Positions 10,004-38,735 are shown, counted from the first letter of the stretch. The stretch: DNA of 64,000 nt from Bacteroidota bacterium (GCA_023391415.1 JAEWAY010000010.1:8363-72362); one strand, 5' to 3'. The notes: generated from the letters alone by a model not told the origin. Numbers and translations: made by a program.

Positions 10004-11266
10004 CTAAAAACATTTATAAATTCCCAGAGACAACCCTTGTCCACCTGTTTTATTGGCGGCCACAAGAAGTCCCGCCGCGTTCAGATTTACATAGGCGAAA
10101 AACCGTTTTCCCACGCTAGCCGCGGCGCCGAGTTCCAGATTCATTCGTCCAAAACCTCCATACATGAGAGCTCCCTGTATGTACAAATTATCACTAAGAG
10201 CGTATACCGGCTTCAAAAACACTCTCGGAATAGCTCCGAGACCGGTTATTATTTCCACTCCACCAATGAACATCAATGCTTCCGAGTGCTTGTATACGTA
10301 TGTCAGTTTAATAAAGGTTGGCAATCTATACAAAAAATTTTCCTCATATATATCCACACCCAGTTCTGACGCGAGACTGTCCGCGGAATATGAAGTGAGC
10401 AGGGTATCGCTGAAGCTAAATATATTCGGAATTTCCTTGCCCGCGTAGTTGACTCTCCCGTTCAGAGCGTAGGTCTTCATACTTCCCCATTGTACAAAAC
10501 CCAGATCGGATACAGACAGCCCCAGTATCGACCGGCCTATCTTGTAGTCAAAGCCCAGGAATGCAGATCCTCCCAATCCATTATTCCTGGCTACAAGTCC
10601 CGGAGAACCGGGCGCGATCCTGGCTTTCAGCTCTCCCTCCACTTCGATATAAGCTCCATACTGTTCCGTATAAAGGCTAAACTGATCGGTTTCCGCGTAT
10701 CGGAAATTTCCTCCCCGTATAAGCGAAACACCAGCCCACATCTTTAGCTTACTATCCAGAAGGCTTTTATTAAGTCCTACGGAAAAGGACTGATAGTCAA
10801 AAGAAGTAAACCTGAAAGGATCCAGTCCGGCTGTCGCGCCCGCGAAGGGCTTATTTCCCCTGAAGAAAAGTTTAAACAAATCTTTAGAAAAGACGGCTGA
10901 ATTATGTTGTCTGGCGGACAAATCGGCTATAAATCTTGTGGACTCGTTGAGTGCCGCCGCGCCGGTCAGAGAAAGGCTGAGCTGATAAGCGTATCGGTTC
11001 GACCGGGCCAATCGCCCCTCTATATAATCCTTTTGTTCGTTGCCGATATAGTTGCCATTGAGAAAATCCAGAAAAAACCGATTGGTTATACCTGTCGCCA
11101 TGAGGGAATACTCCCCTGTAAGAGCGGCGAATTCAGGCAGAGCGTTTTCATCCCGGACGCCGGCTCCAGGATTGTAATACCGGAGATAGTCTGTAAAAAC
11201 CGGTTGAGCCCGGGCTTGAAAAAAGCCCGAGAAAACAATAATTAATAATAGTAAAGCGCTCCTCAT
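10004..11266 (-). CDS. putative outer-membrane beta-barrel protein
   Basis: Signal peptide ending ARAQ, a G/S/A/Y-rich strand pattern, and a C-terminal aromatic residue. ATGA overlap with the upstream lipoprotein gene. Confidence 0.65.
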   Translation of the reverse strand: MRSALLLLIIVFSGFFQARAQPVFTDYLRYYNPGAGVRDENALPEFAALTGEYSLMATGITNRFFLDFLNGNYIGNEQKDYIEGRLARSNRYAYQLSLSLTGAAALNESTRFIADLSARQHNSAVFSKDLFKLFFRGNKPFAGATAGLDPFRFTSFDYQSFSVGLNKSLLDSKLKMWAGVSLIRGGNFRYAETDQFSLYTEQYGAYIEVEGELKARIAPGSPGLVARNNGLGGSAFLGFDYKIGRSILGLSVSDLGFVQWGSMKTYALNGRVNYAGKEIPNIFSFSDTLLTSYSADSLASELGVDIYEENFLYRLPTFIKLTYVYKHSEALMFIGGVEIITGLGAIPRVFLKPVYALSDNLYIQGALMYGGFGRMNLELGAAASVGKRFFAYVNLNAAGLLVAANKTGGQGLSLGIYKCF

Positions 11267-13329: not shown

Positions 13330-13669
13330 TCACCTTTGATAAATGCAACAAATTAAGATTTGATTGAACATTTTCAAAGAAGACAGAAGGTTTTTATTGA
13401 AAAAATCGAAATATATAGTTTCTAATAATGTGAATTGAACCTGCCATTGGAGCGCCTCGGTCTTTCAGCCACTCATACTGCCCGAACATTTTTCCGGCAT
13501 GTGCGATCTGCCGATCACCCATATAAAACTGAAAAACTATGCCTGAACACATGGATCCTGAAAAATGATCGCCCATCGCGAGGAAGCGAATCCATTCATA
13601 GAATTTACATAAAGAATCGGAAGGCGAAAAAAAGAACAGCGGCTATAATGATCCTAATTAATAAGGCGA

Positions 13670-13703
13670 GGGCTGATCGGAATATCCGGATCAGCCCTTT
13701 TTT
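13670..13703. terminator. hairpin plus T-tract, a terminator-like element downstream of htpG
   Basis: GGGCTGATC(GG)...(CC)GGATCAGCCC stem followed by T6 on the plus strand. Lies 32 nt beyond the htpG stop. Confidence 0.4.
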
Positions 13704-13734
13704 CTGTTATTTCATTCTTATATAAGAAACAAGG

Positions 13735-15564
13735 TTAGACGCTTTCCAACTCCACGCTTCTCTTTATAAAGTTGGTCAGGTCTTTTCCTTTAAGCATCCC
13801 CTGGGAAAGAAGCGCGAGATCGTACGCCTGTTTCGCCAGTTTTTCACTCGCGGAAGCATCCACCGCGTCGGCGATCTTTCGGATCATCGGGTGATTGCTA
13901 TTGACTACCACCTGATACTCTTCTCCTAGATTGGCCATAAAAGGCATCCCGCCACCCGCCATGGACATATCCTTCATCCGTCTGATAAATTCCGGGAAGT
14001 TGATGGAAACAGGCAATTCATCAACCGGAAGCGCTTCAAGATTCAATTTAGTCTTCTCATTGCCGATAGCCTTTTCAAACACCTGTTTTACTTTACCCTG
14101 CTGATCTTCGCTCAATACACTTTCCATCTTCTCATCCTTGTCGATCAACTTGTCGATACGGTCCGCATCTACGCGCTTGAGTGAGAATTTTTCGATCTTA
14201 CGCTCCAACAAATTAATAAAATGGCTATCAATAAGCGCGTTGTCGAGCAACAATACGTCATACCCCCGGTTTTTCGCGGATTGGATATAGGTGTCCTGCT
14301 TTCCGGAATCGCTCGTATATAGAGCTATCAGATTACCATCTTTATCCGTCTGCAAGGTTTTTATCCGCTCTTTGTATTCCTCTATGGTCGAAAACTCATC
14401 TTCGGTATTTTTAAGCAGACAGAAGTTGATCGCCTTGTCGTAAAACTTGTCATCGCTGATCATGCCATATTTTATAAACAAGCTGATGTCATCCCACTTC
14501 TCCTCAAAAGATTTTCTGTCCTTATTAAAGAGCTCGGATAGCTTATCGGCGACTTTTTTGGTAATATGGCTATTGATTTTCTTTACATTTCCGTCCGCCT
14601 GGAGAAAACTTCTGGACACATTGAGCGGAATATCCGGAGAATCGATTATTCCCTGAAGCAGCATCAGGAATTCAGGGACCACGTCCTTTACCTCGTCGGT
14701 AATAAATACCTGACGGGAATATAGCTGTATCTTGTCACGGTTTACCTCGATTTCGCCTTTTATTTTGGGGAAATACAATATACCGGTCAACTCAAAGGGA
14801 TAATCAACATTGAGGTGAATCCAGAAAAGCGGGTCGCTGGCGAAAGGATATAATTCCTTATAAAAACTCAGATAGTCTTCGTCTTTCAGCTCAGAAGGCG
14901 ATTTTGTCCATATCGGAGCCGTGTTGTTGACGACATTTCCTTCAAACTCGATCTCGACTGGCAAAAATTTGCAGTACTTGCTGAGAATGGAGCTCAGACG
15001 CCCAGGCTCCAGAAACTCTTCGGAGTCTTCCGCTATATGAAGGATCACATCGGTACCGCGCTCGTCGCGGGTCGCGGCCGTAATCTGAAACTCGGTAGAG
15101 CCGTCGCACTCCCAACGGGCGGCCTCCGCGCCCTCCTGGTAGGAACGGGTGATAATCTCCACATTTTTGGCAACCATGAAAGACGAATAAAATCCAAGGC
15201 CAAAATTTCCTATAATCTGCTTATCATCACCCTTATCCTTATATTTTTCTACAAATTCGGCCGCTCCGGAAAAAGCGATCTGATTGATGTATTTCTTTAT
15301 TTCTTCCGCGGTCATGCCCAATCCCTGATCACTGATTGTAATCGTTTTGGCGTCCTTATCGACAGCTACTTTCACTTTCAGGTCGCCCAACTCGCCTTTG
15401 AACTCTCCCAATGAAGAAAGACGCTTTAGTTTTTGAGTGGCGTCTACCGCGTTTGAAACCAGCTCTCTCAGAAAAATCTCATGATCAGAATAAAGAAATT
15501 TCTTGATAATCGGGAAAATGTTTTCGGTATGAATCGAAATTGTTCCTTTTTCTTCCGTAACCAT
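13735..15564 (-). CDS. htpG: molecular chaperone HtpG (Hsp90)
   Basis: N-terminal GHKL ATPase signature (IFLRELVSNAVDA, ISDQGLGMT, GNFGLGFYS). 609 aa. Confidence 0.95.
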   Translation of the reverse strand: MVTEEKGTISIHTENIFPIIKKFLYSDHEIFLRELVSNAVDATQKLKRLSSLGEFKGELGDLKVKVAVDKDAKTITISDQGLGMTAEEIKKYINQIAFSGAAEFVEKYKDKGDDKQIIGNFGLGFYSSFMVAKNVEIITRSYQEGAEAARWECDGSTEFQITAATRDERGTDVILHIAEDSEEFLEPGRLSSILSKYCKFLPVEIEFEGNVVNNTAPIWTKSPSELKDEDYLSFYKELYPFASDPLFWIHLNVDYPFELTGILYFPKIKGEIEVNRDKIQLYSRQVFITDEVKDVVPEFLMLLQGIIDSPDIPLNVSRSFLQADGNVKKINSHITKKVADKLSELFNKDRKSFEEKWDDISLFIKYGMISDDKFYDKAINFCLLKNTEDEFSTIEEYKERIKTLQTDKDGNLIALYTSDSGKQDTYIQSAKNRGYDVLLLDNALIDSHFINLLERKIEKFSLKRVDADRIDKLIDKDEKMESVLSEDQQGKVKQVFEKAIGNEKTKLNLEALPVDELPVSINFPEFIRRMKDMSMAGGGMPFMANLGEEYQVVVNSNHPMIRKIADAVDASASEKLAKQAYDLALLSQGMLKGKDLTNFIKRSVELESV

Positions 15565-25080: not shown

Positions 25081-28000
25081 GTTGTGATTTGCTTTCATTC
25101 ATTGAAATACTGAGATTTACTACAACCACCTGCCAAGATTTATCCCCTCTGTAATAGTTGTGATTTGCTTTCATTCATTGAAATACTGAGATTTACTACA
25201 ACTGATTGCAGCTACGACATACACGACATTATGTTGTGATTTGCTTTCATTCATTGAAATACTGAGATTTACTACAACAAGAACTCGACACTCCGGATCC
25301 TTGCCCAAGTTGTGATTTGCTTTCATTCATTGAAATACTGAGATTTACTACAACCTAAAAATTAATCCCCCTGCAAATCACCGGTTGTGATTTGCTTTCA
25401 TTCATTGAAATACTGAGATTTACTACAACGCCAGGCTCGATTTCAATATCAAGACCGGAGTTGTGATTTGCTTTCATTCATTGAAATACTGAGATTTACT
25501 ACAACTATATTAAGTGTACCGCCTAACTGGCCATAGTTGTGATTTGCTTTCATTCATTGAAATACTGAGATTTACTACAACCTTTTTTTATACTTCCGGT
25601 ATTTGCTTAGAGTTGTGATTTGCTTTCATTCATTGAAATACTGAGATTTACTACAACATAGTTAAAGGATATCCGGACAATACATTGTTGTGATTTGCTT
25701 TCATTCATTGAAATACTGAGATTTACTACAACGTAGTATCAAGCATATGATCAATTCGCTCCGTTGTGATTTGCTTTCATTCATTGAAATACTGAGATTT
25801 ACTACAACACTATCCGAGTGACTGAAAGTATCTTCCTAGTTGTGATTTGCTTTCATTCATTGAAATACTGAGATTTACTACAACTTGCATACGGTAAACT
25901 TTGTTGTTATTGTAAGTTGTGATTTGCTTTCATTCATTGAAATACTGAGATTTACTACAACTAAAAACCCTTGATTTTACAAGGGTTTTCGGTTGTGATT
26001 TGCTTTCATTCATTGAAATACTGAGATTTACTACAACAGTTGACGAGCGTATTAAAGTCGCGTTGTCGTTGTGATTTGCTTTCATTCATTGAAATACTGA
26101 GATTTACTACAACCAGATGGAAAACGCCTGTCTACATATCCAAGTTGTGATTTGCTTTCATTCATTGAAATACTGAGATTTACTACAACGCCGTGGCAAT
26201 CGCCCCAACTCCTGTATTGGTTGTGATTTGCTTTCATTCATTGAAATACTGAGATTTACTACAACACAACAGAATCCCCTCTTTATCGGGCAACAGTTGT
26301 GATTTGCTTTCATTCATTGAAATACTGAGATTTACTACAACATAGAAAGTAAAATTATCGTCTTCTTGCTGGTTGTGATTTGCTTTCATTCATTGAAATA
26401 CTGAGATTTACTACAACCGGAGTCAGGTACATGGTTGAGTGTCTTTAGTTGTGATTTGCTTTCATTCATTGAAATACTGAGATTTACTACAACCCAATTT
26501 GGGGTATACCGACTCGGATCTAGGTTGTGATTTGCTTTCATTCATTGAAATACTGAGATTTACTACAACACAGTTACACAATGAACAACTACAGATGTAG
26601 TTGTGATTTGCTTTCATTCATTGAAATACTGAGATTTACTACAACACTGATGATCTATGAATTACTTAGACTACGGTTGTGATTTGCTTTCATTCATTGA
26701 AATACTGAGATTTACTACAACAAATCTTGGAATTCGCGGAGAGTTTAGGCGGTTGTGATTTGCTTTCATTCATTGAAATACTGAGATTTACTACAACTGT
26801 AATCTCCCGCGGAGAAAGTTCCATGAGGTTGTGATTTGCTTTCATTCATTGAAATACTGAGATTTACTACAACAAATCTTGGAATTCGCGGAGAGTTTAG
26901 GAGGTTGTGATTTGCTTTCATTCATTGAAATACTGAGATTTACTACAACTTGCTTCCAGAAAACGCGACCAAGGAGTAGTTGTGATTTGCTTTCATTCAT
27001 TGAAATACTGAGATTTACTACAACAGCATTCTCCGTTTTGGTCGCAGCCTCGCCGTTGTGATTTGCTTTCATTCATTGAAATACTGAGATTTACTACAAC
27101 CTTTCTGCAATACCTCAAGCATTGCTTTAGTTGTGATTTGCTTTCATTCATTGAAATACTGAGATTTACTACAACTCAACCGGGGATTGAAACACCGGGG
27201 CAACAGTTGTGATTTGCTTTCATTCATTGAAATACTGAGATTTACTACAACGGCGAAGTTTGGCGGAGCAATCATAATAGGTTGTGATTTGCTTTCATTC
27301 ATTGAAATACTGAGATTTACTACAACCTGATGAGCTAACTACTCATCGAATTTTAAGTTGTGATTTGCTTTCATTCATTGAAATACTGAGATTTACTACA
27401 ACGAAGAAACTCAGGTGGAGACATGGCCGCCAGTTGTGATTTGCTTTCATTCATTGAAATACTGAGATTTACTACAACGGTAGCGGATTGTTCGCTGATC
27501 CCCGTTAGTTGTGATTTGCTTTCATTCATTGAAATACTGAGATTTACTACAACTTATGAGCATAAGGACGGTGGCAAGTGACAGTTGTGATTTGCTTTCA
27601 TTCATTGAAATACTGAGATTTACTACAACTGGCTGGTTTTTTCCATTATGGATACATTAGTTGTGATTTGCTTTCATTCATTGAAATACTGAGATTTACT
27701 ACAACTCCCTGTAGTATGTCAAGTCTATTAATTGCAGTTGTGATTTGCTTTCATTCATTGAAATACTGAGATTTACTACAACAGTAAAAATGGATTTTAA
27801 AACATTACCAAGGTTGTGATTTGCTTTCATTCATTGAAATACTGAGATTTACTACAACAGTAAATCGCTTTTCAATCAAATCCTTTGTGTTGTGATTTGC
27901 TTTCATTCATTGAAATACTGAGATTTACTACAACTTCTTTCCAAAATCGCCAACGCTCTCGGAAGTTGTGATTTGCTTTCATTCATTGAAATACTGAGAT

Positions 28001-28690
28001 TTACTACAACCCGAGGTTAGCGTTTCTTTTCATTCCGTTAGTTGTGATTTGCTTTCATTCATTGAAATACTGAGATTTACTACAACCATCAGCCGCCCAT
28101 ATCCGGTAATCGGTTGAGTTGTGATTTGCTTTCATTCATTGAAATACTGAGATTTACTACAACAAAAAACTAGCTGAATGGATGCAGGAAGGGTTGTGAT
28201 TTGCTTTCATTCATTGAAATACTGAGATTTACTACAACTGATGAGCTAACTACTCATCGAATTTTAAGTTGTGATTTGCTTTCATTCATTGAAATACTGA
28301 GATTTACTACAACTCCCTGAATATTTACGTTTCTAATTATCTGTTGTGATTTGCTTTCATTCATTGAAATACTGAGATTTACTACAACAGTCGATGCGAG
28401 CAATTCTAGCTTTACTAGTTGTGATTTGCTTTCATTCATTGAAATACTGAGATTTACTACAACTAGCTTTCAATTCGCTTCGCTTCGATCAGGGTTGTGA
28501 TTTGCTTTCATTCATTGAAATACTGAGATTTACTACAACTTTCTATCCCTTGGAGAAAAGGAGTATGAAGTTGTGATTTGCTTTCATTCATTGAAATACT
28601 GAGATTTACTACAACCATATGATTATGTTCAAAGCTAGTTGCTAGTTGTGATTTGCTTTCATTCATTGAAATACTGAGATTTACTACAAC
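25081..28690 (+). CRISPR. CRISPR array 1: 48 identical 46-nt repeats and 47 spacers of 29-31 nt
   Basis: I counted repeat starts one by one from 25081, 25157, 25233 through 28570 and 28645. Repeat is GTTGTGATTTGCTTTCATTCATTGAAATACTGAGATTTACTACAAC. Strand is assigned from anti-repeat complementarity (see the tracrRNA feature). Confidence 0.97.
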
Positions 28691-29159: not shown

Positions 29160-30059
29160 TCAGAGTTCCGGATAAGGCACTTTACGCTTTGTTCCCTCAA
29201 AGCAGGCCATGAGGCCGGCCGTAGTATGCTGCATTGCCACCATGAGGGGGCGGAGCTTGCCATCGATGGTGACATCTGTCACCGGTAGTTGCAGTAATGT
29301 AGCCTTGTCGGCGGTACGCAGGGTTTCGGGCATATGAGGCAGTTCCGCCAGCCAGCGCAACACCAGCAGATCGGCAATGGGGCGGTACGGCTCCATGATA
29401 TCATCGGCCAGGCAAAAGGAGTTGTACTTGTTGCGATGGTGTATACCCAGAGCCGGCAAAAAACCGCTCATGACCAGACTGCGAGCCGTAATAGCCCGGA
29501 GTATGGCATAGGCATAGTTGAAAAAAGGATTGGGCATAGGCTCATCCTGCCCGCGGGTGACCTCGTAGCCCCGCAGTATCAGATCCCAGTAGCGGGAAGC
29601 CGCCCGACCCTCCATATTTTCGGGATCTCCGCTGTTCACTTTTTCGGCTATTTTGCGTACAGCCGATCCATCATAGCCCAGTGTATCAAGTACAGCGGCC
29701 TGATTGAGAATTTTCTGCTCTATGGTCTGCTTCCAGATCTGTTTTTTGAGTGGTTCGCTGGCTTCCATCTGCGTACGCAGGGCTTCGGTAAAGGTGGAGT
29801 TGCCCTGCATATTCCAGGTGAGGGCTCCAGGCATATGCCTATCGTCGCACCAGATCACGGCAGCGTAGTGTTGAGCCAGTGCAGACACCACACTTTGGGT
29901 AAAAGTGATCTGCCGGTGATCGAGCACCAGCACACCTATATCTTCCAGAGGCACCTGACGGCTCTCCCGATCACTGTCTTTGGGAAACTCTACCAACAGT
30001 TGACCATAGCGAATGCTCAGGTGTGCCGGGTTTTCGAAGTAAAGAGTTCGTTTGATCAT
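29160..30059 (-). CDS. cas1: CRISPR-associated endonuclease Cas1 (type II)
   Basis: About 299 aa starting from [15 protein letters not shown]. Type II Cas1-like features ([37 protein letters not shown]). Confidence 0.95.
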
Positions 30060-30160
30060 AGTACCACACAACAGAAAGCTATGTGGATAAATACAAAAAT
30101 GTGGTACTTTGGTTTAAAAAAAGAGAATTTGACAACGCTCATTATCAGAACAACAAATGA

Positions 30161-30243: not shown

Positions 30244-33200
30244 TTATATGTCAACAGTCTCTTCTGTCTTATCCACCATATTGCTTCTCAATACATTTAC
30301 AGGTCGTACATTGCCAAGCCGGTCGATATGTACTTTGATGCAACAGGCTTTGATCATCCGCTCTTCATCAAAGCCTTTGTCACTATTACCCCACGGCCGC
30401 TCAGACTTGTTATTCGAACCAAGCTCTTTGGTATCTATGATCGGTCGCGCTATATGAGCCGGAGCAAAGAAACACTGTCCTTTGTTGGAGCTTTTCATAA
30501 TATACAGACGCTCCACTATCTTCTTTTTGTCTGTCCAGTCAATTTGTGCCACATCTTCATCAGCGGTCGGCACATAAACAGTATCGCCCGGCGACAGTAT
30601 GATGTATCCGGCATCCGGATTTTGATCATGAACAGGCAATTTTTTGGCAAGGCGTGGTATCACCTCCAAAAATGGCGGAGTTGAGTATTTTCTTACCACT
30701 TGAAGCTCTCCAGTTTTTTTATTCTCTTCCTGAACGATTTCTATGACAAAATACTGATTAACTCCCTTGTCTCCATCAAGTAGCTTATTATCCAATTCGA
30801 TTTTGTCACCGCCTTCTTTGCGCGAAATTTTATTGATCGGAAATGGCGACAATCTAAGCAACTGTTCGAGCCCTTCCCCTTTAAACGCCTTTTTGGGATC
30901 ATTATCATAATTTGCCAGATGTTCACGCAATAGCTTTGGAAGCCAGTTATTGGCATGATGCGCATTGGGTAGATTTTCTATTTTGTCAATTGTAAATGAA
31001 TCGTCTATAGCAACCCGCTTGGATGCGTACTTCCTGAATTGCATCATATCTAGTTTATCCAGTACCTGTCCTGTACCTTCATCAAACACCGGATTGGATC
31101 GCAAATAGGTCAAAACCGCTTTCAAATCATGATTGTACCTGACAATAATGCTGCTGATTGTTCTGCGCAAGCTGGTTTTGGCAATACGCCAGTCTTCCGA
31201 CTTCCAGATATTTCCGGATTGAATAAACTCCGATTGTGTCTTGACCGCTTTGCTCAGATCGACATTCTTTTTGTATTCCGGCAGGTATATTCTGCCCAAT
31301 GGCTGCCCAAACAGCGATTGCCGCACAGCCACCCAATATTTGTCATCGGATACAGGAGCGGATTGCAATTCAAGTACCTTTTTCCATTGTCCCTCCACTT
31401 GTTTCCAGCGCCAGTATCGGTTCGTTGTCGGACTCACCAATCGGGACGATGGCTTGTAAGACACCGCTACCCGCTCCAGATGCTCTCTGACATTTTTAAA
31501 AAATATTCCGTCATTCTCAGTACCCCAGGGTGGAGCAAACTCTGTCATACCAATTGTCTCTCCCCGTAGTTCTTTCTCTTTTTTGAGCAAGTATTTCCAT
31601 TTTTTCCAATAAGTATACCGCTCATTGTCGGCCGGATCATTGCTAAAAGAACTAAGTGAGTTGAGATATTGGATATGCCTGCGGGTGGTACAGGCTACTA
31701 TGAGACCATCAAGGGCCTGATGCCTGTGATCAATACGCTTGTAATCTTTCGCAAAATGAATATCCTTCCGCTTATCTGGATTATCTATGATCAGTTGTTC
31801 GCCCGTAAGACGTTGCAGACGCTCAAAACGAGGCCGGACCAGCTCTTTCCATAACTTATGCAAGCCCCATTTATACTTAAGATCAGAAGTTATGGCACCA
31901 TTAGTATATACAATACCATCATTCGTTTCATTCCCTTTGGCTACCGGACGCAGAAACTGCGCTATTGTGCGGGCCAGGTAGCGGGTATCGTTTAGCTGGC
32001 GCTCTACAAAGTCTTCCGGTATTTCACTAAGTTTAAGATATCTGCGTTTCTTTTTGGAAAAGATGGCATCTACATTTTTCAGGTACGTCTCCATATCCAA
32101 TACTTTTGCCTCACCATCACGCCCCTGCATATCTTCAATAAACTGTATGGCGGTGCGATTGCCTTTGATTGCGTTGACTTTGGCCTCTACAATTACCTTA
32201 TTTCCAATTGAGTCATCATAAAAGCGACTCCGGGGCAATATATGATCAATCTGGTATTTTTCTGTAAAAAGATCACTAAGCTTGATCGGTTTGCCAGTAT
32301 AAGGCGAACGATAGCCCTGCTCTGCCCAAAGCTTGTATTTTTCAATGTCCGCATTGCTTACAAACTCCGCTTTATTGGTTTTGAATATCGATTCAAACTG
32401 CTCTTCCGCCTGGCGACCTCCATTTTCTTTCCATAGACGGAACCGATCCTGATCTGCCGGAGAATCCGGGTTGGCCTGCGGGCACCGAAGCTCTCTCAGT
32501 AAGGCTTCGATACGCGCTCTTTCAAGCCGGTTTTTCATATTATAGGTGAAGTCATCCTTCCGCTGCTTATTGTTTTTGCGAAGCTCACGCCCCAGCTCCA
32601 CGTGTATATAGTCTGGCCGACCCAAAGCGGGATCCTGCCATATATCCCTGACCAGATTGAGAGCTTCGCGTACCAGTTTTTCTACAACGGGATTGCGCAT
32701 GGAGTTGTATGGGACCAGCTCCCGGATACGCAGATCGGCCACGCTATCGTATTTATGCTCATTGGCAGGCTCGCTGTGTCGTCCGTAAGCTACATAACAG
32801 GCTGTGGTGACAGATAAGCCTTGAAAATCGGTGAGCGAATAAAGATTTTCTTTCTGCACATGCCTACGCGCCACATCAGAAATTGATGTCCCGTCTTCAC
32901 CATCAATAAACAACTCAATCCGGCTTCTAAGATCTATAGCTGGTTGCAGACTATAGCCTTTTTGTCCTTTGGCTTTGGGATACAGACCTTCTTCGCACCA
33001 GTACCTGCCGGTACGCATGAGGGGCAAAAGGTTGTTGAGCGCTCTTACAGAGTATGCGGCATACTCGCTTTTAAAAGCCGGCAGACTCGCCAGATGCTTT
33101 ATCAGAGGCTGAGGAAAATCAAAATACTTTGTGTTGGATAAAGCGGATTCTATATCTTTCTTTTCGGGCAGAGAATATAGGACATGCCAAAGCTGATGCA

Positions 33201-34869
33201 GCCTGTGCGGGTCGGCAAGTAGTGCTTCGCCCTGCTGTTGAAAGCTGTGTTTTCGAAACACTTTGCGAAAGAGCGCTTTGGTCTGATTGCCCGGAAAGGA
33301 TGTATCTTCCGGATAATTGAGCCGGACAGGATATGTTTTGCCGTCGGCCTCCAACCTGTTCTTTTTAAAACCCAGATGCTGCAATATAGCATCGCAGGTT
33401 ACCTCCGCGCTCTGGTCAAAAAGTTCGAACAAGCGCTCTTTGGCCTCGGTAGTAAGATGCTCACCAGAATCATTGGAGCTGTTTTGTTGCCTTCTACCAA
33501 CCTGTTTTTCTTTGTCGTGAATACGTAAGTTGTGAATGGTCTGCCAAATTCTGAACTCCTGAAACAAGGGATGACTTTTGGGCGCTACTTTTATTCCGGC
33601 TGAACATTGTACACCATCCTTGTCCAGATAGGTTCTGGATTCGTAGCGGCAATTGGCAAGCAAACCCTTCTGAGACTTGAGACCTCGCTGATAGTATATA
33701 ATATCGTTGCGAAAAATATGGTATAGATCTCTTGATCTGATCTCTTTATTTTTTTGCCGGTTGTGTACATAAAATGCGTCTGCTATGGCATCGATGTTGG
33801 TACGATCAGCAAATATGTCTTTATAGTACCGCTCCTGACATTGCCAGATCGCGTCCATTTCTTTCTGATAAAAAGACCGGTCTACGATACGCTCTCTGAT
33901 ACGATAGTTGCGGTCTTGCCGCAACTGCTGCAAATAATATTCCGACAGGTGCAGCGAGGTACGGTTTACGTCTTTTTCAAGTGCTTCTTTGCGATTTTGC
34001 CAGTCGGCCGGATCTACTTCGGCTACTGTGTAGCTGACTTCTCCTGATTTGGTTGTCTTGCGGGAGATGGTCAGCTCCAGATCCTTGCCCTTCCAGTCCG
34101 GAGCCTGCCGTCTTCTCTGTATTACTTCAAAAGACAGCTCTCCTGCTCTACAGTGCAGCTTGAAAAAGTTTTGATCTTTGTTTTTTCCCTGTGCAGGGCC
34201 CAGATCTTCAATATCCTGTATATGGACGATCTCGATCCATTTTTCGGTTATAGGGTACTTCACTGAGTCGGATTCCTGGTCGCTCTCTGCCTGGATCTGG
34301 TCCTTGCGACTGCTCCTGAAGCCCCGACGCTGATTGTAATGATAAAGTACACGGGCAAGTTCAGTCAGGCTGATTTGCTCTCTAAGAGCTTTGGCCTTGA
34401 GATAATAGATTATCCAGTCTTCGGGTATTTCGTATTGCTCTCCCTGTGCGTTGAGCTGACCGGTAATTTCAAAATAATCGGCCACCTCCCGCCTCAAATC
34501 ATCGGAATAAGGCAGGTAGGATTTGATAGTATGATTGGGATTTTTCTTAAAATCTTCAGGAAATTCCGGCGACAGCCAACCCAATATCTTAAAGGCTCTG
34601 ATAAGACGTGTACGACGTAGCTTGTAGCGGTGATTGAGACGGCGGGCGCCACGGGCCAGACGGCGGGCTGCGGCTTTTGACTCGGGTGTGCCCGACTCAA
34701 ACTTGCTGAGCGCATCGCCCTCCATAGGAATAATACGGCTGCCCAGGCGCAGTATGCGACCTTGCAGCTTCGCAGGCTCGTTATCATCATAGATATTGCT
34801 CTCTATCATGGCCCAACCAATAGAATTGGTACCGAGGTCCAAGCCAAGTATTCTTTTCATATCGGACAT
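30244..34869 (-). CDS. cas9: Cas9 (type II-C-like, 1541 aa)
   Basis: RuvC-I GLDLGTNSIGWA, an Arg-rich bridge helix AAARRLARGARRLNHRYKLRRTR, HNH DHILPRSRFYDDSIGNKVIVEAKVNAIKGNRTA, RuvC-III DHRHQALDGLIV. cas1 and cas2 follow. Confidence 0.95.
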   Translation of the reverse strand: MSDMKRILGLDLGTNSIGWAMIESNIYDDNEPAKLQGRILRLGSRIIPMEGDALSKFESGTPESKAAARRLARGARRLNHRYKLRRTRLIRAFKILGWLSPEFPEDFKKNPNHTIKSYLPYSDDLRREVADYFEITGQLNAQGEQYEIPEDWIIYYLKAKALREQISLTELARVLYHYNQRRGFRSSRKDQIQAESDQESDSVKYPITEKWIEIVHIQDIEDLGPAQGKNKDQNFFKLHCRAGELSFEVIQRRRQAPDWKGKDLELTISRKTTKSGEVSYTVAEVDPADWQNRKEALEKDVNRTSLHLSEYYLQQLRQDRNYRIRERIVDRSFYQKEMDAIWQCQERYYKDIFADRTNIDAIADAFYVHNRQKNKEIRSRDLYHIFRNDIIYYQRGLKSQKGLLANCRYESRTYLDKDGVQCSAGIKVAPKSHPLFQEFRIWQTIHNLRIHDKEKQVGRRQQNSSNDSGEHLTTEAKERLFELFDQSAEVTCDAILQHLGFKKNRLEADGKTYPVRLNYPEDTSFPGNQTKALFRKVFRKHSFQQQGEALLADPHRLHQLWHVLYSLPEKKDIESALSNTKYFDFPQPLIKHLASLPAFKSEYAAYSVRALNNLLPLMRTGRYWCEEGLYPKAKGQKGYSLQPAIDLRSRIELFIDGEDGTSISDVARRHVQKENLYSLTDFQGLSVTTACYVAYGRHSEPANEHKYDSVADLRIRELVPYNSMRNPVVEKLVREALNLVRDIWQDPALGRPDYIHVELGRELRKNNKQRKDDFTYNMKNRLERARIEALLRELRCPQANPDSPADQDRFRLWKENGGRQAEEQFESIFKTNKAEFVSNADIEKYKLWAEQGYRSPYTGKPIKLSDLFTEKYQIDHILPRSRFYDDSIGNKVIVEAKVNAIKGNRTAIQFIEDMQGRDGEAKVLDMETYLKNVDAIFSKKKRRYLKLSEIPEDFVERQLNDTRYLARTIAQFLRPVAKGNETNDGIVYTNGAITSDLKYKWGLHKLWKELVRPRFERLQRLTGEQLIIDNPDKRKDIHFAKDYKRIDHRHQALDGLIVACTTRRHIQYLNSLSSFSNDPADNERYTYWKKWKYLLKKEKELRGETIGMTEFAPPWGTENDGIFFKNVREHLERVAVSYKPSSRLVSPTTNRYWRWKQVEGQWKKVLELQSAPVSDDKYWVAVRQSLFGQPLGRIYLPEYKKNVDLSKAVKTQSEFIQSGNIWKSEDWRIAKTSLRRTISSIIVRYNHDLKAVLTYLRSNPVFDEGTGQVLDKLDMMQFRKYASKRVAIDDSFTIDKIENLPNAHHANNWLPKLLREHLANYDNDPKKAFKGEGLEQLLRLSPFPINKISRKEGGDKIELDNKLLDGDKGVNQYFVIEIVQEENKKTGELQVVRKYSTPPFLEVIPRLAKKLPVHDQNPDAGYIILSPGDTVYVPTADEDVAQIDWTDKKKIVERLYIMKSSNKGQCFFAPAHIARPIIDTKELGSNNKSERPWGNSDKGFDEERMIKACCIKVHIDRLGNVRPVNVLRSNMVDKTEETVDI

Positions 34870-34910
34870 AAGGTTGAAATGTTAAATTATCTAAAAAAGC
34901 ACCTGATGAA

Positions 34911-34933
34911 GATAAATTAAAGCAAATCACAAC
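34911..34933. other. orphan repeat/anti-repeat element in the cas9 upstream region
   Basis: Plus strand 34919-34933 reads AAAGCAAATCACAAC, the exact reverse complement of repeat positions 1-15. On the cas9 strand this reads GTTGTGATTTGCTTT, 50-64 nt upstream of the cas9 ATG. Confidence 0.5.
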
Positions 34934-35493
34934 ACAAGTCTTTTCCAACATTCTTCCAAGTTGTTATAGATTTGTTATTGGCTTCTCACCAGGCGCCAGT
35001 ATTCTCAGCTGATCATCCGTATATCCAAAAATGCAAAGGTCGATAATCCCTATTATAGAACAAAATCAGGACAGTGAAACTTACTCAACAGTATCAACGT
35101 CACCTTCTATATCTGCCATTCTTTATTATTTCTATTAGTTGATCATATGATCTATTTCGATTAGATCCAGTCTTCCCCAAAGACACATTCAGCCGAATCG
35201 ATATAGTGCCTTTTTTCACTAACTTTATCAATATAAAAATAAACAAAAGATTTGTAGAAATATTAAAAATAGAAGGATCAAATAAATGTAGTTGCTGCAT
35301 CCACTTGTGTTTTTAATGAGAACACAATTTTATCAAAAGATTTGTAGAAATACAAATTTTAAACATTGCCAACCTTAGATTCTCCCTTATCCTCCAATTC
35401 TCATTTGTTTATCTCTTTGAGCCTGCAACGACAAAGTTCATATATGAAATAACATCCTTACCTTATATTGATAGCACACGAAAAAATATAGAC

Positions 35494-35618
35494 AAAAAAA
35501 CGCCCCGATAAAATCGAGGCGGCCCCGATGATGTCGAGACACATATCGAATCACTACGGAATGATCCTTATTGTGATTTGCTGATTGAAAGGTAGTGTAT
35601 TTTATACATTTATACAAC
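35494..35618 (-). ncRNA. candidate tracrRNA
   Basis: Parts of the minus-strand RNA in order:
- Anti-repeat ...CCUUUCAAUCAGCAAAUCACAAU.
- AAGG plus a small GGA-UCAU-UCC nexus-like hairpin.
- A 9-bp hairpin GUGAUUCGA...UCGA(C)AUCAU.
- A terminator hairpin CGCCUCGAU-UUU-AUCGGGGCG followed by U7.
The anti-repeat pairs with repeat nt 1-13 and with the AUUGAAA segment of array 1. Confidence 0.6.
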
Positions 35619-35633
35619 CCCTAGGTCTGATTT

Positions 35634-35951
35634 TTAGCTTTTTGTCTGAGACATACTACTGACCTTGTATTGCAACAGCTCGTTGTACAGCTCTAGTGTC
35701 ATGGTCTTGAGGTTTTCAAAAAATACGGGCAGCGGCACCTCCACCAAGCGCTCTATGGTCTGGTGATAGCGCTGGTAAAGCTCATCGCTGCGCTGCTCGC
35801 GCCCAAAACCCATCAGCTCCAGCACCTGCCGGTCGAGATCGGTATAAAAATCGTCGGCTGTAAATCCGGCCTTTTCCAGACCGTACAAAAGTTTTGAATT
35901 TTTGAGGTCCGCTCGTAAAAGTGAGAGAATTAATTCCTTTGGATATTCCAT
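35634..35951 (-). CDS. hypothetical small helical acidic protein (105 aa)
   Basis: Clean ORF ending 15 nt upstream of the tracrRNA candidate. No recognisable family. Confidence 0.5.
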   Translation of the reverse strand: MEYPKELILSLLRADLKNSKLLYGLEKAGFTADDFYTDLDRQVLELMGFGREQRSDELYQRYHQTIERLVEVPLPVFFENLKTMTLELYNELLQYKVSSMSQTKS

Positions 35952-36261
35952 AATCTTTGGATTAAAAGTTTAACTATCCAAAGATAAACGATACAAAAAA
36001 CACTGTTTTTCAAGGTTTTTTTAACCAAAACGATATATAATTTAGCTAATCCGATATTTAAATTAACTGATTCTATATTTTTTAGCTCAGATAAAAAATA
36101 ATGACTTTTTTTCCACAACCCCTTCTCTTTTTGCTAACTTCATTCTGCTAATTAGTGAGATTTACTACAACTTACAACTTCCTCCCCAGAGTTCCTTGCA
36201 GTTGTGATTTGCTTTCATACAGCTTCCTACATGTTGCTTTTGAAAAAACTGGAAACAATTT

Positions 36262-36285
36262 ATATGTACAGATTGTTGTACATAT
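36262..36285 (+). promoter_or_regulatory. putative YefM-YoeB operator (paired TGTACA hexamers)
   Basis: ATATGTACA-gattgt-TGTACATAT. The TGTACA cores are at 36265-36270 and 36277-36282, 12 bp centre to centre and about 50 nt upstream of yefM. E. coli yefM-yoeB operators use TGTACA-core palindromes. Confidence 0.55.
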
Positions 36286-36331
36286 GATGATAATTAATTA
36301 AATTGAATCAGTTAATTGATCCCAGAATATT

Positions 36332-36586
36332 ATGGAAGTAACAACATACACCAATTTAAGACAGCATCTGAAGGCATATCTGGACAAGGTAGTAAAACAA
36401 CATACGCCTCTGTTTGTGACAAGATCAGGCAGTGAGGAAGTAGTAATACTCTCCAAATCTGATTTTGAAAGTATGCAAGAGACCTTCTACCTCCTGCAAT
36501 CGCCGGCAAACGCGGTCAGGCTGCACCGGGCTTTGCAAGAATACAAAGAGGGTAAAGGCACTAAAAGGAATCTGATAGAAGAGTAA
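36332..36586 (+). CDS. yefM: type II antitoxin, Phd/YefM family
   Basis: 84 aa. MEVTTYTNLRQHLKAYLDKV...PLFVTRSG...VVILS...ETFYLL is the classic YefM pattern. Confidence 0.9.
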   Translation: MEVTTYTNLRQHLKAYLDKVVKQHTPLFVTRSGSEEVVILSKSDFESMQETFYLLQSPANAVRLHRALQEYKEGKGTKRNLIEE

Positions 36587-36588
36587 AT

Positions 36589-36843
36589 ATGGACATTGTT
36601 TTTTCGTCCGACGCATGGGACGATTATTTATATTGGCAGGAACATGACAAAAAAATGTTGAAAAAAATCAACGCTCTGATTAAGGAAATAGAAAGAACCC
36701 CCTTTGAAGGATCTGGCAAACCAGAGCCGTTAAAACACGCTCTGGCCGGGTGCTGGTCGAGAAGAATTAATCTTGAGCATCGACTCGTGTATCAGTTTGA
36801 TGACAGTGCTGTTTTTATTCTGCAATGCAGATACCATTATTAG
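36589..36843 (+). CDS. yoeB: type II toxin, YoeB/Txe family mRNA interferase
   Basis: 84 aa. AWDDYLYWQEHDKKMLKKINALIKEIERTPFEGSGKPEPLKHALAGCWSRRINLEHRLVY...RYHY is near-canonical YoeB. It starts 2 nt after the yefM stop. Confidence 0.9.
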   Translation: MDIVFSSDAWDDYLYWQEHDKKMLKKINALIKEIERTPFEGSGKPEPLKHALAGCWSRRINLEHRLVYQFDDSAVFILQCRYHY

Positions 36844-37903
36844 ATTGATTTACTACAACAATAGCTCTCGAAGAGTTAGAGAGTTTTTGTTGTGATTTGC
36901 TTTCATTCTGCTAATTAGTGAGATTTACTACAACAGGGTTCCGCATTCTGAAACATATAGTTCGTTGTGATTTGCTTTCATTCTGCCAATTAGTGAGATT
37001 TACTACAACTTTAAATAAAGTTTAACTAACTTTATGTTGTTGTGATTTGCTTTCATTCTGTCAATTAGTGAGATTTACTACAACTAAAATAAAGATCAGT
37101 AGGGTTCTGAACAGGTTGTGATTTGCTTTCATTCTGCCAATTAGTGAGATTTACTACAACTCAAATCCTTCACATAGGGTTAATTATGTTGTGATTTGCT
37201 TTCATTCTGCCAATTAGTGAGATTTACTACAACGGAATCGATTCAACCGACTGGTTATTGTATGTTGTGATTTGCTTTCATTCTGCCAATTAGTGAGATT
37301 TACTACAACCAATTTACTGGGAAGCCCATCATTTCCCCGTTGTGATTTGCTTTCATTCTGCCAATTAGTGAGATTTACTACAACAGATGTCCGATTAATA
37401 TTACTTTATTAACGTTGTGATTTGCTTTCATTCTGCCAATTAGTGAGATTTACTACAACGATTTCTTAAAACGTTGAATCGCTCGTAAGTTGTGATTTGC
37501 TTTCATTCTGCCAATTAGTGAGATTTACTACAACGATTGATGATAAGGCGGTCACTATGCCTTCGTTGTGATTTGCTTTCATTCTGCCAATTAGTGAGAT
37601 TTACTACAACACTATACTTCATTTTCCTTGAATTTTATTGTTGTGATTTGCTTTCATTCTGCCAATTAGTGAGATTTACTACAACTCGCCAATAATTTGG
37701 TACACCTTTTTCCCGGTTGTGATTTGCTTTCATTCTGCCAATTAGTGAGATTTACTACAACCTAGGTCTCTCTAGTTGGCTTCTTTACAAGGGTTTATTG
37801 CCAATATCAAGATCAGAAAACGGAGGCAAAACACCACCCATGTCAAAAAAGTAAGCCGGTTTTTGAAATCCTGTGACTCTATAAATACAGCGGTGGTGGT
37901 GTA

Positions 37904-38467
37904 TTATTTGCCCCTTTTGCTGAGGTATGAAAAGAGACTTCTCCACCAAGGGAGCTGGGGAGAGATCGTGTTGGACTGATTTCGCTCCAATATCTTTCTG
38001 AGTTCCATAGCATCTACCATATCCTTCAATGTTTCATCGTGACGCCTGGCCTGGCTCTTGATCTCAATCAGATCTTCCAAACCTATTACCGGCACATGGC
38101 TGTTATGTAACTGCTGCATGGAAGCTCTGCCAAAACAGGCTTCAAAAGTCAAAGGCTCATAGTAGATCGTGGTCATTAGATCTACCTTAAATTCTTCATT
38201 TTCTTCAAACAATCGGATAGGTGTAGGATGGTCTGGTGGCCTTTCGTTAATAACCTGAAAAATGGCTTCATCTGTATAGCCAAGCTGCTTCAGGGCTTTT
38301 CCCAGTCGCGCCATATTGGGTGTGGTAGCATCGAGCCATAAATCCATATCGCCGGTATATCTCGAATATCCATAAAAACCAACGGCCAGACCACCCACCA
38401 ATAAAAACCGAACCTGATTTTGGTTCAACGCATCCAGTACTTCTTTATAAAAATCATCGATCACCAT
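37904..38467 (-). CDS. nucleotidyltransferase-fold protein (Pol-beta/MNT superfamily)
   Basis: FLLVGGLAVGFYGYSRYTGDMDLWLD matches the hGGxA...G..R.T.DhD NTase signature. The start at MVIDDFYKE (38467) gives an ATGGTGA overlap with the upstream small ORF. An alternative start is at 38539. Confidence 0.65.
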   Translation of the reverse strand: MVIDDFYKEVLDALNQNQVRFLLVGGLAVGFYGYSRYTGDMDLWLDATTPNMARLGKALKQLGYTDEAIFQVINERPPDHPTPIRLFEENEEFKVDLMTTIYYEPLTFEACFGRASMQQLHNSHVPVIGLEDLIEIKSQARRHDETLKDMVDAMELRKILERNQSNTISPQLPWWRSLFSYLSKRGK

Positions 38468-38634
38468 TCGATCTTTCTTTTGCAAACAACGGTAGATTTG
38501 GGTTTGCCCATTTTGAATAATCGCATAAGGTAATTCCATTTTTTCTCAAACGGCCATTGAGCAAACCGCAACCGAAACTCCATTTCCTGTTCGCTGGCAT
38601 TGGCCTGATCCGGATTCCAGTCTATTTTTTTCAT
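38461..38634 (-). CDS. small ORF (57 aa) translationally coupled to the nucleotidyltransferase gene
   Basis: Hand translation gives MKKIDWNPDQANASEQEMEFRLRFAQWPFEKKWNYLMRLFKMGKPKSTVVCKRKIEW. Its stop overlaps the NTase ATG. No family recognised. Confidence 0.3.
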   Translation of the reverse strand: MKKIDWNPDQANASEQEMEFRLRFAQWPFEKKWNYLMRLFKMGKPKSTVVCKRKIEW

Positions 38635-38718
38635 AGTTGGGCTACATTTGATGGAAACGTGTGTTTTAATTAAACAAATCCGATCTCTACCATAAAGTTA
38701 AGGTAAAAACTTTAATTT

Positions 38719-38735
38719 GTTGCGATTCGCTTTCA
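38719..38735 (+). repeat. orphan degenerate CRISPR repeat 5-prime fragment
   Basis: GTTGCGATTCGCTTTCA matches repeat nt 1-17 at 15 of 17 positions. It lies about 960 bp beyond the last intact repeat of array 2. Confidence 0.45.

Follow-up and report, generated by a model that had tools for sequence, protein, structure and literature searches.

In a 64,000-nucleotide stretch of a Bacteroidota bacterium genome (the window), the second of two CRISPR arrays appears to have acted as a recombination substrate. We consider it probable that toxin–antitoxin (TA)-like modules are lodged in this array, have been reshuffled via its repeats and have been exchanged as alleles of a whole island. This reading is built on junction structures, array polarity, gene identities and an exchange pattern that can be followed directly among five haplotypes of one lineage. 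All sequences compared, those of the window and of the relatives (L numbers), are from metagenome assemblies. The variable site lies between a 105-aa gene and a 69-aa gene, on the cas9-upstream side of the locus.

The type II-C locus and the polarity of array 2

The locus encodes a Cas9 with RuvC and HNH domains (TIGR01865, 2.6e-132), an NMENI-subtype Cas1 (TIGR03639, 4.8e-78) and Cas2. The cas genes in the gene list of the source scaffold are cas9-cas1-cas2 only, without csn2 or cas4, and this content together with a tracrRNA bearing a terminator places the locus in type II-C. The tracrRNA gene (35494–35625, minus strand), delineated by minus-strand reading, a terminator scan and folding, comprises an anti-repeat (35570–35618), a nexus and hairpins, with an intrinsic terminator at 35501–35521 followed by a T-run on the same strand. 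In cofolding, the anti-repeat forms a 13-bp duplex with nt 1–13 of the repeats of both arrays (−24.7 and −25.5 kcal/mol for the two repeat types). The tracrRNA is 98% conserved in L001 and L002; no Rfam model reaches threshold at this locus, where the only match is a sub-threshold one to CRISPR-DR. Every type II system includes an anti-repeat as a working component; it is not to be read as a decayed copy. The preliminary description had counted 35570–35618 among three extra degenerate repeat copies; this segment is the working tracrRNA anti-repeat and not a bracket left by recombination. The other two are a mutated repeat of array 2 (36126–36171) and a half repeat (38719–38735).

Repeat-like segments were sought across the whole window with the 17-nt query GTTGTGATTTGCTTTCA, allowing at most two mismatches and taking the expectation from 100 shuffles. 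The search returned 63 matches against 0.00 expected. All of the elements first described are present at their coordinates and exceed chance. Only three matches fall outside both arrays: 36201–36217, 38719–38735 (two mismatches) and 34917–34933 (minus strand). Taken alone, 38719–38735 has an ungapped score equal to that of the best chance matches; we assign it to the repeat because of the 17-mer test and the comparative junctions described below, not because of that score.

The motif CCTAGGTCT occurs exactly twice in the window (0.25 expected), each time directly after a repeat-like end. The recurrence of CTAGGTCT after the array-2 end and after the tracr-locus repeat, to which attention had been drawn, is real in the window and weakly conserved in relatives: the counterpart flanks in L001 and L002 read CGCAGGTCT versus ATAGACCT or ATAGATCT, and L010 has CCCTAGGTCT after a repeat. 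Given this partial conservation, we rejected CTAGGTCT as proof of common origin and regard it as suggestive only. A 14-nt direct repeat (35609, 36110) flanking the 105-aa gene and a 16-nt inverted repeat (36061/36302) were also set aside, both being within chance for 2 kb of AT-rich DNA.

Array 2 (36889–37761, plus strand) contains 12 full 46-nt repeats with unique spacers, including variant repeats at 36889 (CTGCTAATT) and 37039 (CTGTCAATT). An extra repeat of the array, the oldest and mutated, lies at 36126–36171 (plus strand). Its nt 14–46 are intact (36139–36171 matches them at 32 of 33 positions), nt 1–6 are lost, a 3-nt insertion is present and cofolding indicates that it can no longer pair with the tracrRNA; it occupies the same place in L001, L008 and L010 and is truncated in L002. 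Type II-C arrays have such a mutated ‘extra’ first repeat, with spacer acquisition at the last repeat (PMC12080349). The segment at 36126–36171 is alike in age, in its mutated 5′ part, in its failure to pair with tracrRNA and in lying opposite the acquiring end, with no essential difference, and is an ordinary II-C feature.

The growing end of array 2 is marked by its leader (37762–37903, plus strand), which has two conserved blocks in common with the array-1 leader in a seven-leader alignment. A 115-nt leader is common to both arrays at their high-coordinate ends, and mutated repeats stand at the low-coordinate end of both. The variant repeats at 36889 and 37039 had already been taken to mean that the low-coordinate end is the older one, and the leader position agrees: array 2 probably grows at its high-coordinate end and decays at its cas9-proximal end. 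In L001, a variant repeat has spread to 16 leader-side repeats. None of the array-2 spacers is common with any other haplotype. In a test for self-targeting spacers, 12-mer matches were as numerous as expected by chance. Two leader-side spacers have no match among viral contigs, which share only the generic Bacteroidota repeat 5′ end and not this repeat.

Cassettes and their repeat borders

The YefM/YoeB cassette (36219–36843, plus strand) occupies the second spacer slot in the window. It contains yefM (36332–36586) directly upstream of yoeB (36589–36843), with 2 nt between the genes. YefM matches PF02604 (5e-22, 77.8 bits) and YoeB matches PF06769 (1.5e-40, 137.5 bits), both above cut-off and accompanied by a TIGR02116 match, and by gene content and order the cassette is a predicted type II TA system. 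It has its own operator palindrome, TGTACA-N6-TGTACA (36265–36282). The cassette is joined directly to a half repeat, R(1–18) (36201–36218, plus strand), the junction reading GTTGTGATTTGCTTTCAT followed by ACAGC, and this half repeat keeps the full 13-bp tracrRNA pairing in cofolding. The junction is identical in L002, L008 and L010, but its left flank differs; there the cassette is 93–95% identical and lies on the far side of the nucleotidyltransferase (NTase) pair, and L001 lacks it. At the other border, a partial repeat R(26–46) (36839–36859, plus strand; 18/21, exact from nt 34) abuts the yoeB stop codon, which in L002, L008 and L010 abuts nt 1 of a full repeat instead.

The second module (37904–38634, minus strand) encodes a 57-aa W-rich protein (38461–38634) and a MenT1-like NTase (37904–38467). 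The NTase ORF is better read as 187 aa with its start at 38467, overlapping the stop codon of the 57-aa ORF (ATGGTGA), an overlap that bears out the translational coupling proposed for the pair. The protein passes PF09970 (DUF2204; 1.1e-5, 25.5 bits against a cut-off of 20.3) and does not belong to the AbiEii/DUF1814 family (PF08843, E 0.083, 13.2 bits, below the 22.5-bit cut-off; PADLOC AbiEii, 1e-3 only). The best PDB match of its AF2 model (pLDDT 88) is the MenT1 toxin 8an4 (E 2.8e-6, TM 0.59), and residues G25/G26, D40 and D42 show little or no variation among 44 homologues, pointing to a Pol-β-type fold with a GG...DxD catalytic motif in the modelled protein. The suggested MNT/AbiE-style likeness is thereby upheld for fold, motif and the MenT1 match, and fails for AbiEii/DUF1814 family membership.

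The 57-aa partner has no HTH and no Pfam match. A homologous 57–60-aa ORF overlaps the NTase start in four unrelated contexts, and the pair with its overlapping small ORF recurs at unrelated loci in other Bacteroidota (L014, L015 and L017); NTase relatives on viral contigs are distant. The dN/dS values are 0.04–0.23 for the NTase pair and 0.03–0.23 for the island gene units overall, indicating real genes.

The 105-aa ORF (35634–35951, minus strand) encodes a small all-helical protein of an uncharacterised family. Its dN/dS of 0.03–0.08 marks it as a real gene, and an exhaustive search found homologues in 257 representative clusters. The AF2 model has five helices (pLDDT 94.8) with no match in Pfam, NCBIfam, PADLOC, PDB sequences or PDB folds, and a single sub-threshold PHROGs match is to an unannotated family (E 0.089). 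HMM searches, which the preliminary description had proposed, thus identify YefM/YoeB and the DUF2204 NTase and leave the 105-aa and 57-aa proteins without a Pfam match. The 105-aa unit had been listed with the bracketed cassettes; the gene is real, but it is present in 5/5 haplotypes and invariant between them, so there is no evidence for its capture as a mobile unit here. Its homologues in L018 and L019 do not adjoin CRISPR.

The half repeat at 38719 and the history of the island

The right-hand edge of the variable island is formed by a half repeat R(1–17), GTTGCGATTCGCTTTCA (38719–38735, plus strand). Its left flank is identical to that of the junction between NTase flank, R(1–18) and YefM/YoeB in L002, L008 and L010, and on its right (caccgcgagaa...) it has the flank of the L010 distal half repeat, TTGTGATTCGCTTTCA; window and L010 are 99.84% identical from 38747 on. 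Because the left and right flanks each adjoin different half repeats in relatives, we interpret 38719 as a recombination scar, a recombinant between two half repeats that is demonstrable from the aligned sequences. The copy is mutated, and its tracrRNA pairing is impaired in cofolding.

Comparison among close relatives, suggested at the outset, supports the main idea. The five haplotypes have no spacers in common and have differing cassette sets and orders, with nearly every breakpoint inside a repeat, at nt 14–25; breakpoints at the cassette borders vary (repeat nt 14, 15, 17, 18, 19, 25, 26 and 37) and cluster at nt 14–19. L001 has no cassettes and an uninterrupted 23-repeat array, and its flanking exbBD-like region is 98% identical to that of L002. 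L008 contains a tandem two-unit duplication inside the array, and L002 contains duplicated leaders, A and B. Relatives also carry a 207-aa gene, an XRE gene and a Gp49/HigB-HTH pair, and the toxin and antitoxin genes of this pair (Gp49/HigB and HTH) are separated by a repeat fragment in L002. Judged by sequence, all of the cassettes are TA-like.

Between species, island genes have dS values of 0.07–0.47, compared with 1.3–1.6 for flanking genes. L010 is conspecific with the window (flank dS 0), but its island is not the same and the two have no spacers in common. Island content thus varies within a species, whereas across species the islands resemble one another more closely than the flanking genes do. 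An independent Logan contig (L007) reproduces the Rdeg-spacer-R(1–18)-YefM/YoeB arrangement of the window. Two more distant Cas9 relatives (55–58% identity) have no upstream array or cassettes; Cas9 homologues drop from 97% to 58% identity with none between, and the genome and metagenome scans for relatives yielded one locus each. No integrase or recombinase domain was found in ORFs of 35.1–40.5 kb, and the cassette borders have no target duplications, no flanking inverted repeats and no single cut site. On these counts the island does not fit a site-specific cassette platform of the integron-like or casposon-like kind.

We propose that small self-stabilising two-gene modules became lodged in and beside an active array 2. 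The entry of each module would have been a single event, an illegitimate join within a repeat, with half repeats remaining at the module's edge; the first-capture junctions do look like illegitimate joins. Homologous recombination among the 46-bp repeats, half repeats and duplicated leaders would then have moved, duplicated and deleted blocks of array, leader and cassette, and DNA uptake with the same recombination would swap whole island alleles between strains and species. In the window, such a history would have left two marks: YefM/YoeB in the second spacer slot, and the hybrid half repeat at 38719, which marks the deletion of a block that L010 still has, made up of YefM/YoeB, one repeat and another cassette. 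The path from an L010-like arrangement to that of the window needs about three recombination events, and no intermediate haplotype linking the two was seen among the five. Window and L010 yoeB are not especially close (dS 0.31), which implies an old rearrangement or an imported island. Of the repeat-mediated capture originally put forward, reshuffling and deletion by repeat recombination are documented in these haplotypes, and we infer the first capture; a benefit may also be involved, such as addiction modules guarding the array and cas9 from deletion.

The reverse order of events is unlikely. The NTase pair and YefM/YoeB would then be old residents of the intergenic site around which the arrays grew, new ones being seeded on both sides by a duplicated repeat and leader unit or by off-target Cas1–Cas2 integration into repeat-like sequence, with the half repeats as the seeds. 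Such growth would fit the duplicated leaders A and B, each with its own array of unique spacers (L002, L008), and the end of YefM/YoeB in L002, L008 and L010, which falls exactly at nt 1 of a full repeat, like a spacer end. It fits poorly with L001, where the array is continuous and free of cassettes between the same flanks as in L002, and with the far lower divergence of the cassettes compared with their flanking genes. The occurrence of the NTase pair as a module elsewhere, at unrelated loci, also speaks against it, as does the junction at 38719, which arose by deletion and did not serve as a seed.

Repeat fragments as possible guides

A further repeat 5′ part (GTTGTGATTTGCTTTAATT; 34915–34933, minus strand, the cas9-sense strand) precedes the cas9 ATG by 46 nt and falls outside the coordinates first described. 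This orphan matches the repeat at 18/19 positions (one mismatch as a 17-mer) and can form the same 13-bp duplex with the tracrRNA in cofolding. Its 13–15-nt core is identical in L001 and L002, within flanks that are ~50% identical. Standalone repeat-like elements are thus kept in related loci, the second being R(1–18) before YefM/YoeB in four haplotypes. L008 and L010, which carry another cas9 allele than the window's, have a repeat-like element that shares the strand of the anti-repeat and lies upstream of it; the 10-nt guide end of this element has a unique match 56 nt upstream of cas9. A natural-sgRNA hairpin in L010 was rejected, as it is not the minimum-energy fold.

There is a slim chance that the repeat fragments at cassette borders and upstream of cas9 act as tracrRNA-binding crRNA-like guides, in the manner of CreTA, crlRNA, scaRNA or tracr-L. 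Expression of the toxin modules or of cas9 would then be tied to Cas9–tracrRNA, addicting the cell to CRISPR. The full pairing retained by R(1–18) and the orphan, the perfect conservation of the orphan core within a diverged intergenic region and the unique match in L008/L010 are compatible with such a role, and mini-array control of cargo TA genes is known in type I loci (PMC10120712). However, YefM/YoeB has its own operator, the sequence before R(1–18) differs between haplotypes and the mutated 38719 copy pairs poorly with the tracrRNA. The 30 nt before the orphan repeat, R(1–18) and the 38719 remnant were searched against the whole 64-kb window, and these pseudo-spacers (at 34934, 36200 and 38718) have no seed match of at least 10 nt there; this search of the window found no CRISPR-guided control of the cassettes. 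An adjacent spacer with partial complementarity, seed end included, to a cas or cargo promoter was not found in the window and occurs only with the L008/L010 cas9 allele. If true, the arrangement would be a protein-TA analogue of CreTA, and the array a capture-and-control platform for addiction genes.

Chance repeat matches or chimeric metagenome assembly across CRISPR repeats are a highly improbable and largely refuted source of the pattern: they gain from the metagenomic origin of every sequence compared and from the chance-level ungapped score of 38719–38735, but are opposed by the 0.00 matches expected in the 17-mer test, by cassette junctions that contain only 13–18 nt of repeat (not long enough to mislead an assembler) and have private mutations, by the L002-like order in three independent assemblies with diverged sequence and by the window order in an independent Logan contig.

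Relation to known systems

Seen as an array in which TA-like modules have lodged and been reshuffled, the locus clearly illustrates a tendency that is already known and does not constitute a system of a new kind. It is an unusually readable natural record of a CRISPR array as a recombination substrate, with one scar traced to both parents and with the same cassettes and half-repeat junctions in different places across five haplotypes. It supports the view of arrays and leaders as landing and shuffling zones for addiction modules, and the idea that strains and species exchange whole CRISPR islands at a pace exceeding the divergence of the genome around them. Software for finding arrays would split or shorten such arrays, and crRNAs may still be made from the short spacer-plus-half-repeat units. 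Candidates for testing are a MenT1-like putative toxin with a new small partner and two unrelated Cas9 proteins using the same repeat 5′ end.

Cargo TA and regulator genes have been described in variable ‘gene-shuffling hotspots’ of CRISPR-cas loci (Shmakov et al. 2023, PMC10120712). The likeness lies in TA genes inside CRISPR-cas loci, in content that varies among close relatives and in some empty sites. Those cases are mainly type I-D, with cargo between cas genes beside a mini-array whose spacer matches the cargo promoter, whereas the present locus is type II-C, its cassettes lie within a real array that has split repeats, or at its ends, and the search for a guide–promoter match found none. 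The tracr-L natural single guide of S. pyogenes (PMC10120712) resembles the L008/L010 element upstream of the anti-repeat, with its 10-nt cas9-upstream match. This signature is not in the cas9 allele of the window, where the orphan is on the cas9-sense strand, downstream of the tracrRNA terminator, and has no detectable target.

The NTase module resembles MenAT1 (Rv0078A/B) of M. tuberculosis, in which an NTase toxin of similar length (189 aa, compared with 187 here) and the same fold follows a short partner gene. Identity to MenT1 is only 22% and the Pfam family of the putative toxin here is DUF2204, not AbiEii/DUF1814. In the hicA-CRISPR-hicB arrangement of Cas13a loci (PMC13448076), a type II TA is likewise interleaved with CRISPR repeats, as in the Gp49/HigB cassette of L002. 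That system is type VI; in it a full array separates the toxin gene from the antitoxin gene, and functional coupling has been shown. Here there are repeat fragments only, and YefM/YoeB is uninterrupted. Type I TA modules beside arrays in Clostridioides difficile (PMC5961336) are another instance of addiction modules recurrently co-located with arrays; those have RNA antitoxins and lie beside the arrays, whereas the modules described here are protein TA cassettes joined to half repeats.

Layout of the locus and its repeat copies

The window contains a type II-C CRISPR-Cas locus. Array 1 (25081–28690) is composed of 48 identical 46-nt repeats; cas2, cas1 (29160–30071) and cas9 (30244–34869, 1541 aa) lie on the minus strand. 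The tracrRNA, also on the minus strand, is located upstream of cas9, with its anti-repeat at 35570–35618 and a terminator at 35521–35494 (9-bp stem and T-run). The 105-aa gene is positioned between the tracrRNA and a mutated repeat (Rdeg, 36126–36171), which is followed by a 29-nt spacer and, at 36201, by a half repeat comprising repeat nt 1–18, R(1–18), fused to a complete YefM/YoeB operon. A partial repeat, R(26–46), and a spacer connect this operon to the 12 full repeats of array 2 (36889–37761). Directly after array 2 is a 142-nt leader, beyond which are the NTase pair (a 57-aa ORF and a nucleotidyltransferase gene, minus strand) and a 17-nt repeat-like segment at 38719.

The observations of the preliminary description, which saw gene cassettes bracketed by CRISPR repeat remnants, are confirmed: the repeat copies and the recurring sequence were located, and the variant array-2 repeats lie where it had placed them. 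A search of the whole window with the first 17 repeat nucleotides (≤2 mismatches) finds three sites outside the arrays (36201, 38719 and 34917–34933) compared with 0.00 in shuffled sequence, placing the copies beyond chance. The inverted copy at 34917–34933 was absent from the earlier list. The sequence CCTAGGTCT occurs only twice in the 64 kb, both times immediately past a repeat-like end.

Of three copies previously regarded as remnants, that at 38719 retains this status as a recombination product. The segment at 35570–35618 is a functional anti-repeat, forming an identical 13-bp duplex with repeat nt 1–13 of both arrays; every type II system has one. The copy at 36126–36171 is the oldest repeat of array 2. 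Positions 36139–36171 match repeat nt 14–46 at 32 of 33 positions, and Rdeg occupies the same position in all relatives and has lost the tracrRNA-pairing nucleotides. It fits the mutated ‘extra repeat’ of type II-C arrays, where spacers are acquired at the last repeat (PMC12080349).

The orphan repeat 5′ part at 34915–34933 (minus strand) precedes the start of cas9 by 46 nt on the cas9-sense strand and is predicted to be able to pair with the tracrRNA. Its core is fully conserved in the relatives' haplotypes L001 and L002, with flanks only about 50% identical. No target was found for its pseudo-spacer, and the pseudo-spacers of the window have no promoter match.

The suggestion that the low-coordinate end of array 2 is the older one holds, and three features agree on this polarity: relatives have mutated repeats at the low-coordinate end of their array 1, a C-to-T variant in L001 is present in 16 of 16 leader-side repeats and none of seven older repeats, and a leader of ~115 nt with two conserved blocks lies past the last repeat of both arrays. 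The 12-nt repeat middle differs between array 1 and array 2 of the window (ATTGAAATACTG versus TGCCAATTAGTG); both L001 arrays carry the array-2 type, and array 1 of the conspecific haplotype L010 has a third variant. The repeat ends are constant across the window, L001, L002, L008 and L010, which suggests that the middle block can vary or be exchanged freely. Array 1 also contains two pairs of identical or near-identical spacers at non-adjacent positions (26722/26874 and 27327/28239), suggesting either that one target was sampled more than once or that the array underwent internal duplication. A viral contig (IMG/VR L030 and L033, 2730–4210) contains a CRISPR array from another Bacteroidota repeat family, with an 18-nt repeat 5′ end in common with the window repeat; this array includes two repeat variants, an interruption of ~300 nt without repeats, and repeats into which a hairpin has been inserted.

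Rearrangement among haplotypes

Two scans and several exact-protein look-ups provided four further haplotypes, described here in window orientation. L001 contains Rdeg, 23 repeats, a leader and exbBD-like genes. L002 begins with an XRE gene fused to Rdeg(15–46), a spacer, and R(1–25), an HTH antitoxin gene, R(1–19), a Gp49/HigB toxin gene and R(37–46), and continues with 14 repeats, leader A, the NTase pair, R(1–18)–YefM/YoeB, two repeats, leader B and exbBD. L008 consists of Rdeg, 17 repeats, leader A, the NTase pair, R(1–18)–YefM/YoeB, 12 repeats and a leader. In L010, Rdeg, 15 repeats, leader A, the NTase pair, R(1–18)–YefM/YoeB and one repeat are followed by a partial leader, a ~1.1-kb cassette (207-aa and 71-aa ORFs), R(2–17) and then window-identical sequence. 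L003 to L007 represent either the scaffold of the window itself or Logan contigs identical to it, and L007 gives independent confirmation of the Rdeg–spacer–R(1–18)–YefM/YoeB order. This comparison with close relatives, which had been proposed as a test, supports repeat-mediated reshuffling, with cassette sets differing among haplotypes.

The 38719 segment arose when two half repeats recombined with each other. In L002, L008 and L010 the sequence of its left flank, ccataaagttaaggtaaaaactttaattt, leads into the intact YefM/YoeB junction between GTTGTGATTTGCTTTCAT and acagc, and in L010 that of its right flank (caccgcgagaa...) adjoins the distal half repeat TTGTGATTCGCTTTCA, whose T-to-C change at nt 10 is also present in the 38719 copy. 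In an L010-like arrangement, such an event removes a repeat and the 207-aa cassette together with YefM/YoeB. L010 and the window are 99.84% identical from 38747 onward, and the variable island ends on its right side at the 38719 half repeat. The L010 distal half repeat adjoins a relic of ~100 nt with 78% identity to the exbB-like gene found in L001 and L002; exbBD is therefore probably ancestral at the right edge.

The identical left junction establishes a single origin of the YefM/YoeB cassette. In three haplotypes the cassette is found on the far side of the NTase pair, where a second array has its old end, and in the window it fills the second spacer slot of the one array that is left. We infer a relocation path made up of repeat-to-repeat events only: an unequal crossover would first duplicate the leader–NTase–YefM/YoeB block, and two deletions would then give the window position. 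Other traces of such recombination are a tandem two-unit duplication in L008 and duplicated leaders.

Exchange of the island between strains and species

In comparisons of the window with L001, L002 or L008, dS is 1.3–1.6 for the BrkB and carbamoyl-phosphate synthase genes in the flanks and 0.07–0.47 for island genes (0.15–0.44 for the NTase and 105-aa genes). Relative to the conspecific L010 and L011, the flanks are 98.6–99.8% identical and the island differs throughout: cas1 has a dS of 0.26, there are zero shared spacers, and in place of cas9 and the tracrRNA there is an unrelated 1446-aa allele whose identity is patchy and only 25–33%. Because the island is less diverged than its flanks across species, yet different between conspecifics, it is a recombination and transfer hotspot.

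The two unrelated cas9 alleles (1541 and 1446 aa) occupy one locus (window 30244–35660; L010 original coordinates 10708–15048; L008). Each is accompanied by a tracrRNA of its own, in one case encoded on the cas9 strand and in the other divergently, and the two alleles have in common the repeat 5′ end that they use. One swap border is near the 5′ end of cas1 (about 30118); the other falls inside the 105-aa gene at its 3′ end (35660) and alters the last residues of that protein. Upstream of cas9 in L010 and L008 (their coordinates 9600–9800, in window orientation) is a tracr-L-like signature. A repeat-like element, GTTGTGAATTGCTTT, precedes the anti-repeat by 42 nt on the same strand. Immediately 5′ of this element are 10 nt (AGGATAGTAA) whose reverse complement matches a single site, 56 nt upstream of the cas9 ATG; this match is conserved in both haplotypes despite differing surroundings. 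The corresponding hairpin is absent from the predicted minimum-energy fold.

Cassette genes and relation to known systems

The 105-aa, 57-aa and NTase ORFs are under purifying selection (dN/dS 0.03–0.23). The 187-aa NTase starts at 38467, overlapping the stop of the 57-aa ORF. The arrangement of the pair had been likened to MNT/AbiE-style TA or defence modules; the NTase passes the Pfam DUF2204 profile and not AbiEii. Its GG...DxD motif is invariant, and MenT1, the toxin of MenAT1, is the best match for its AF2 model (pLDDT 88; E 2.8e-6, TM 0.59). MenA1 is also a short protein. In other Bacteroidota, NTase homologues lie among housekeeping genes, always preceded by an overlapping homologous ORF of 57–60 aa. 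The pair is a portable two-gene module of TA-like build.

The 105-aa gene, previously listed as a unit bracketed by repeat copies, bears no mark of a captured cassette: it is present in every haplotype, and the two homologues examined are away from CRISPR. The protein belongs to a family of about 257 clusters and is confidently modelled by AF2 as five helices; sequence and fold searches with it gave no match to anything known.

In L002 (original coordinates 7089–7840), a 19-nt repeat fragment separates the Gp49/HigB-like toxin gene from the HTH antitoxin gene, with a 25-nt fragment just past the latter, an arrangement resembling the hicA-CRISPR-hicB layout of Cas13a loci. L002 also has an IS1595-family transposase fragment between the tracrRNA and cas9 (original coordinates 9486–9854). 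A distant locus with a 58% identical Cas9 (L020, 12806–14246) contains DUF6036 (nucleotidyltransferase-like, weak match) and EVE-domain genes between cas9 and cas1.

An array that serves as a site of repeat-mediated recombination of presumably captured small genes is a supported interpretation, with the caveat that no integrase, target duplication or fixed cut site was found for the first insertions. TA genes carried as cargo where CRISPR loci have shuffling hotspots (PMC10120712), TA modules beside CRISPR arrays (PMC5961336) and TA interleaved with a CRISPR array (PMC13448076) are on record. New here are the type II-C setting, the putative protein TA cassettes fused to split repeats within the array, and a haplotype set that lays open the recombination steps.
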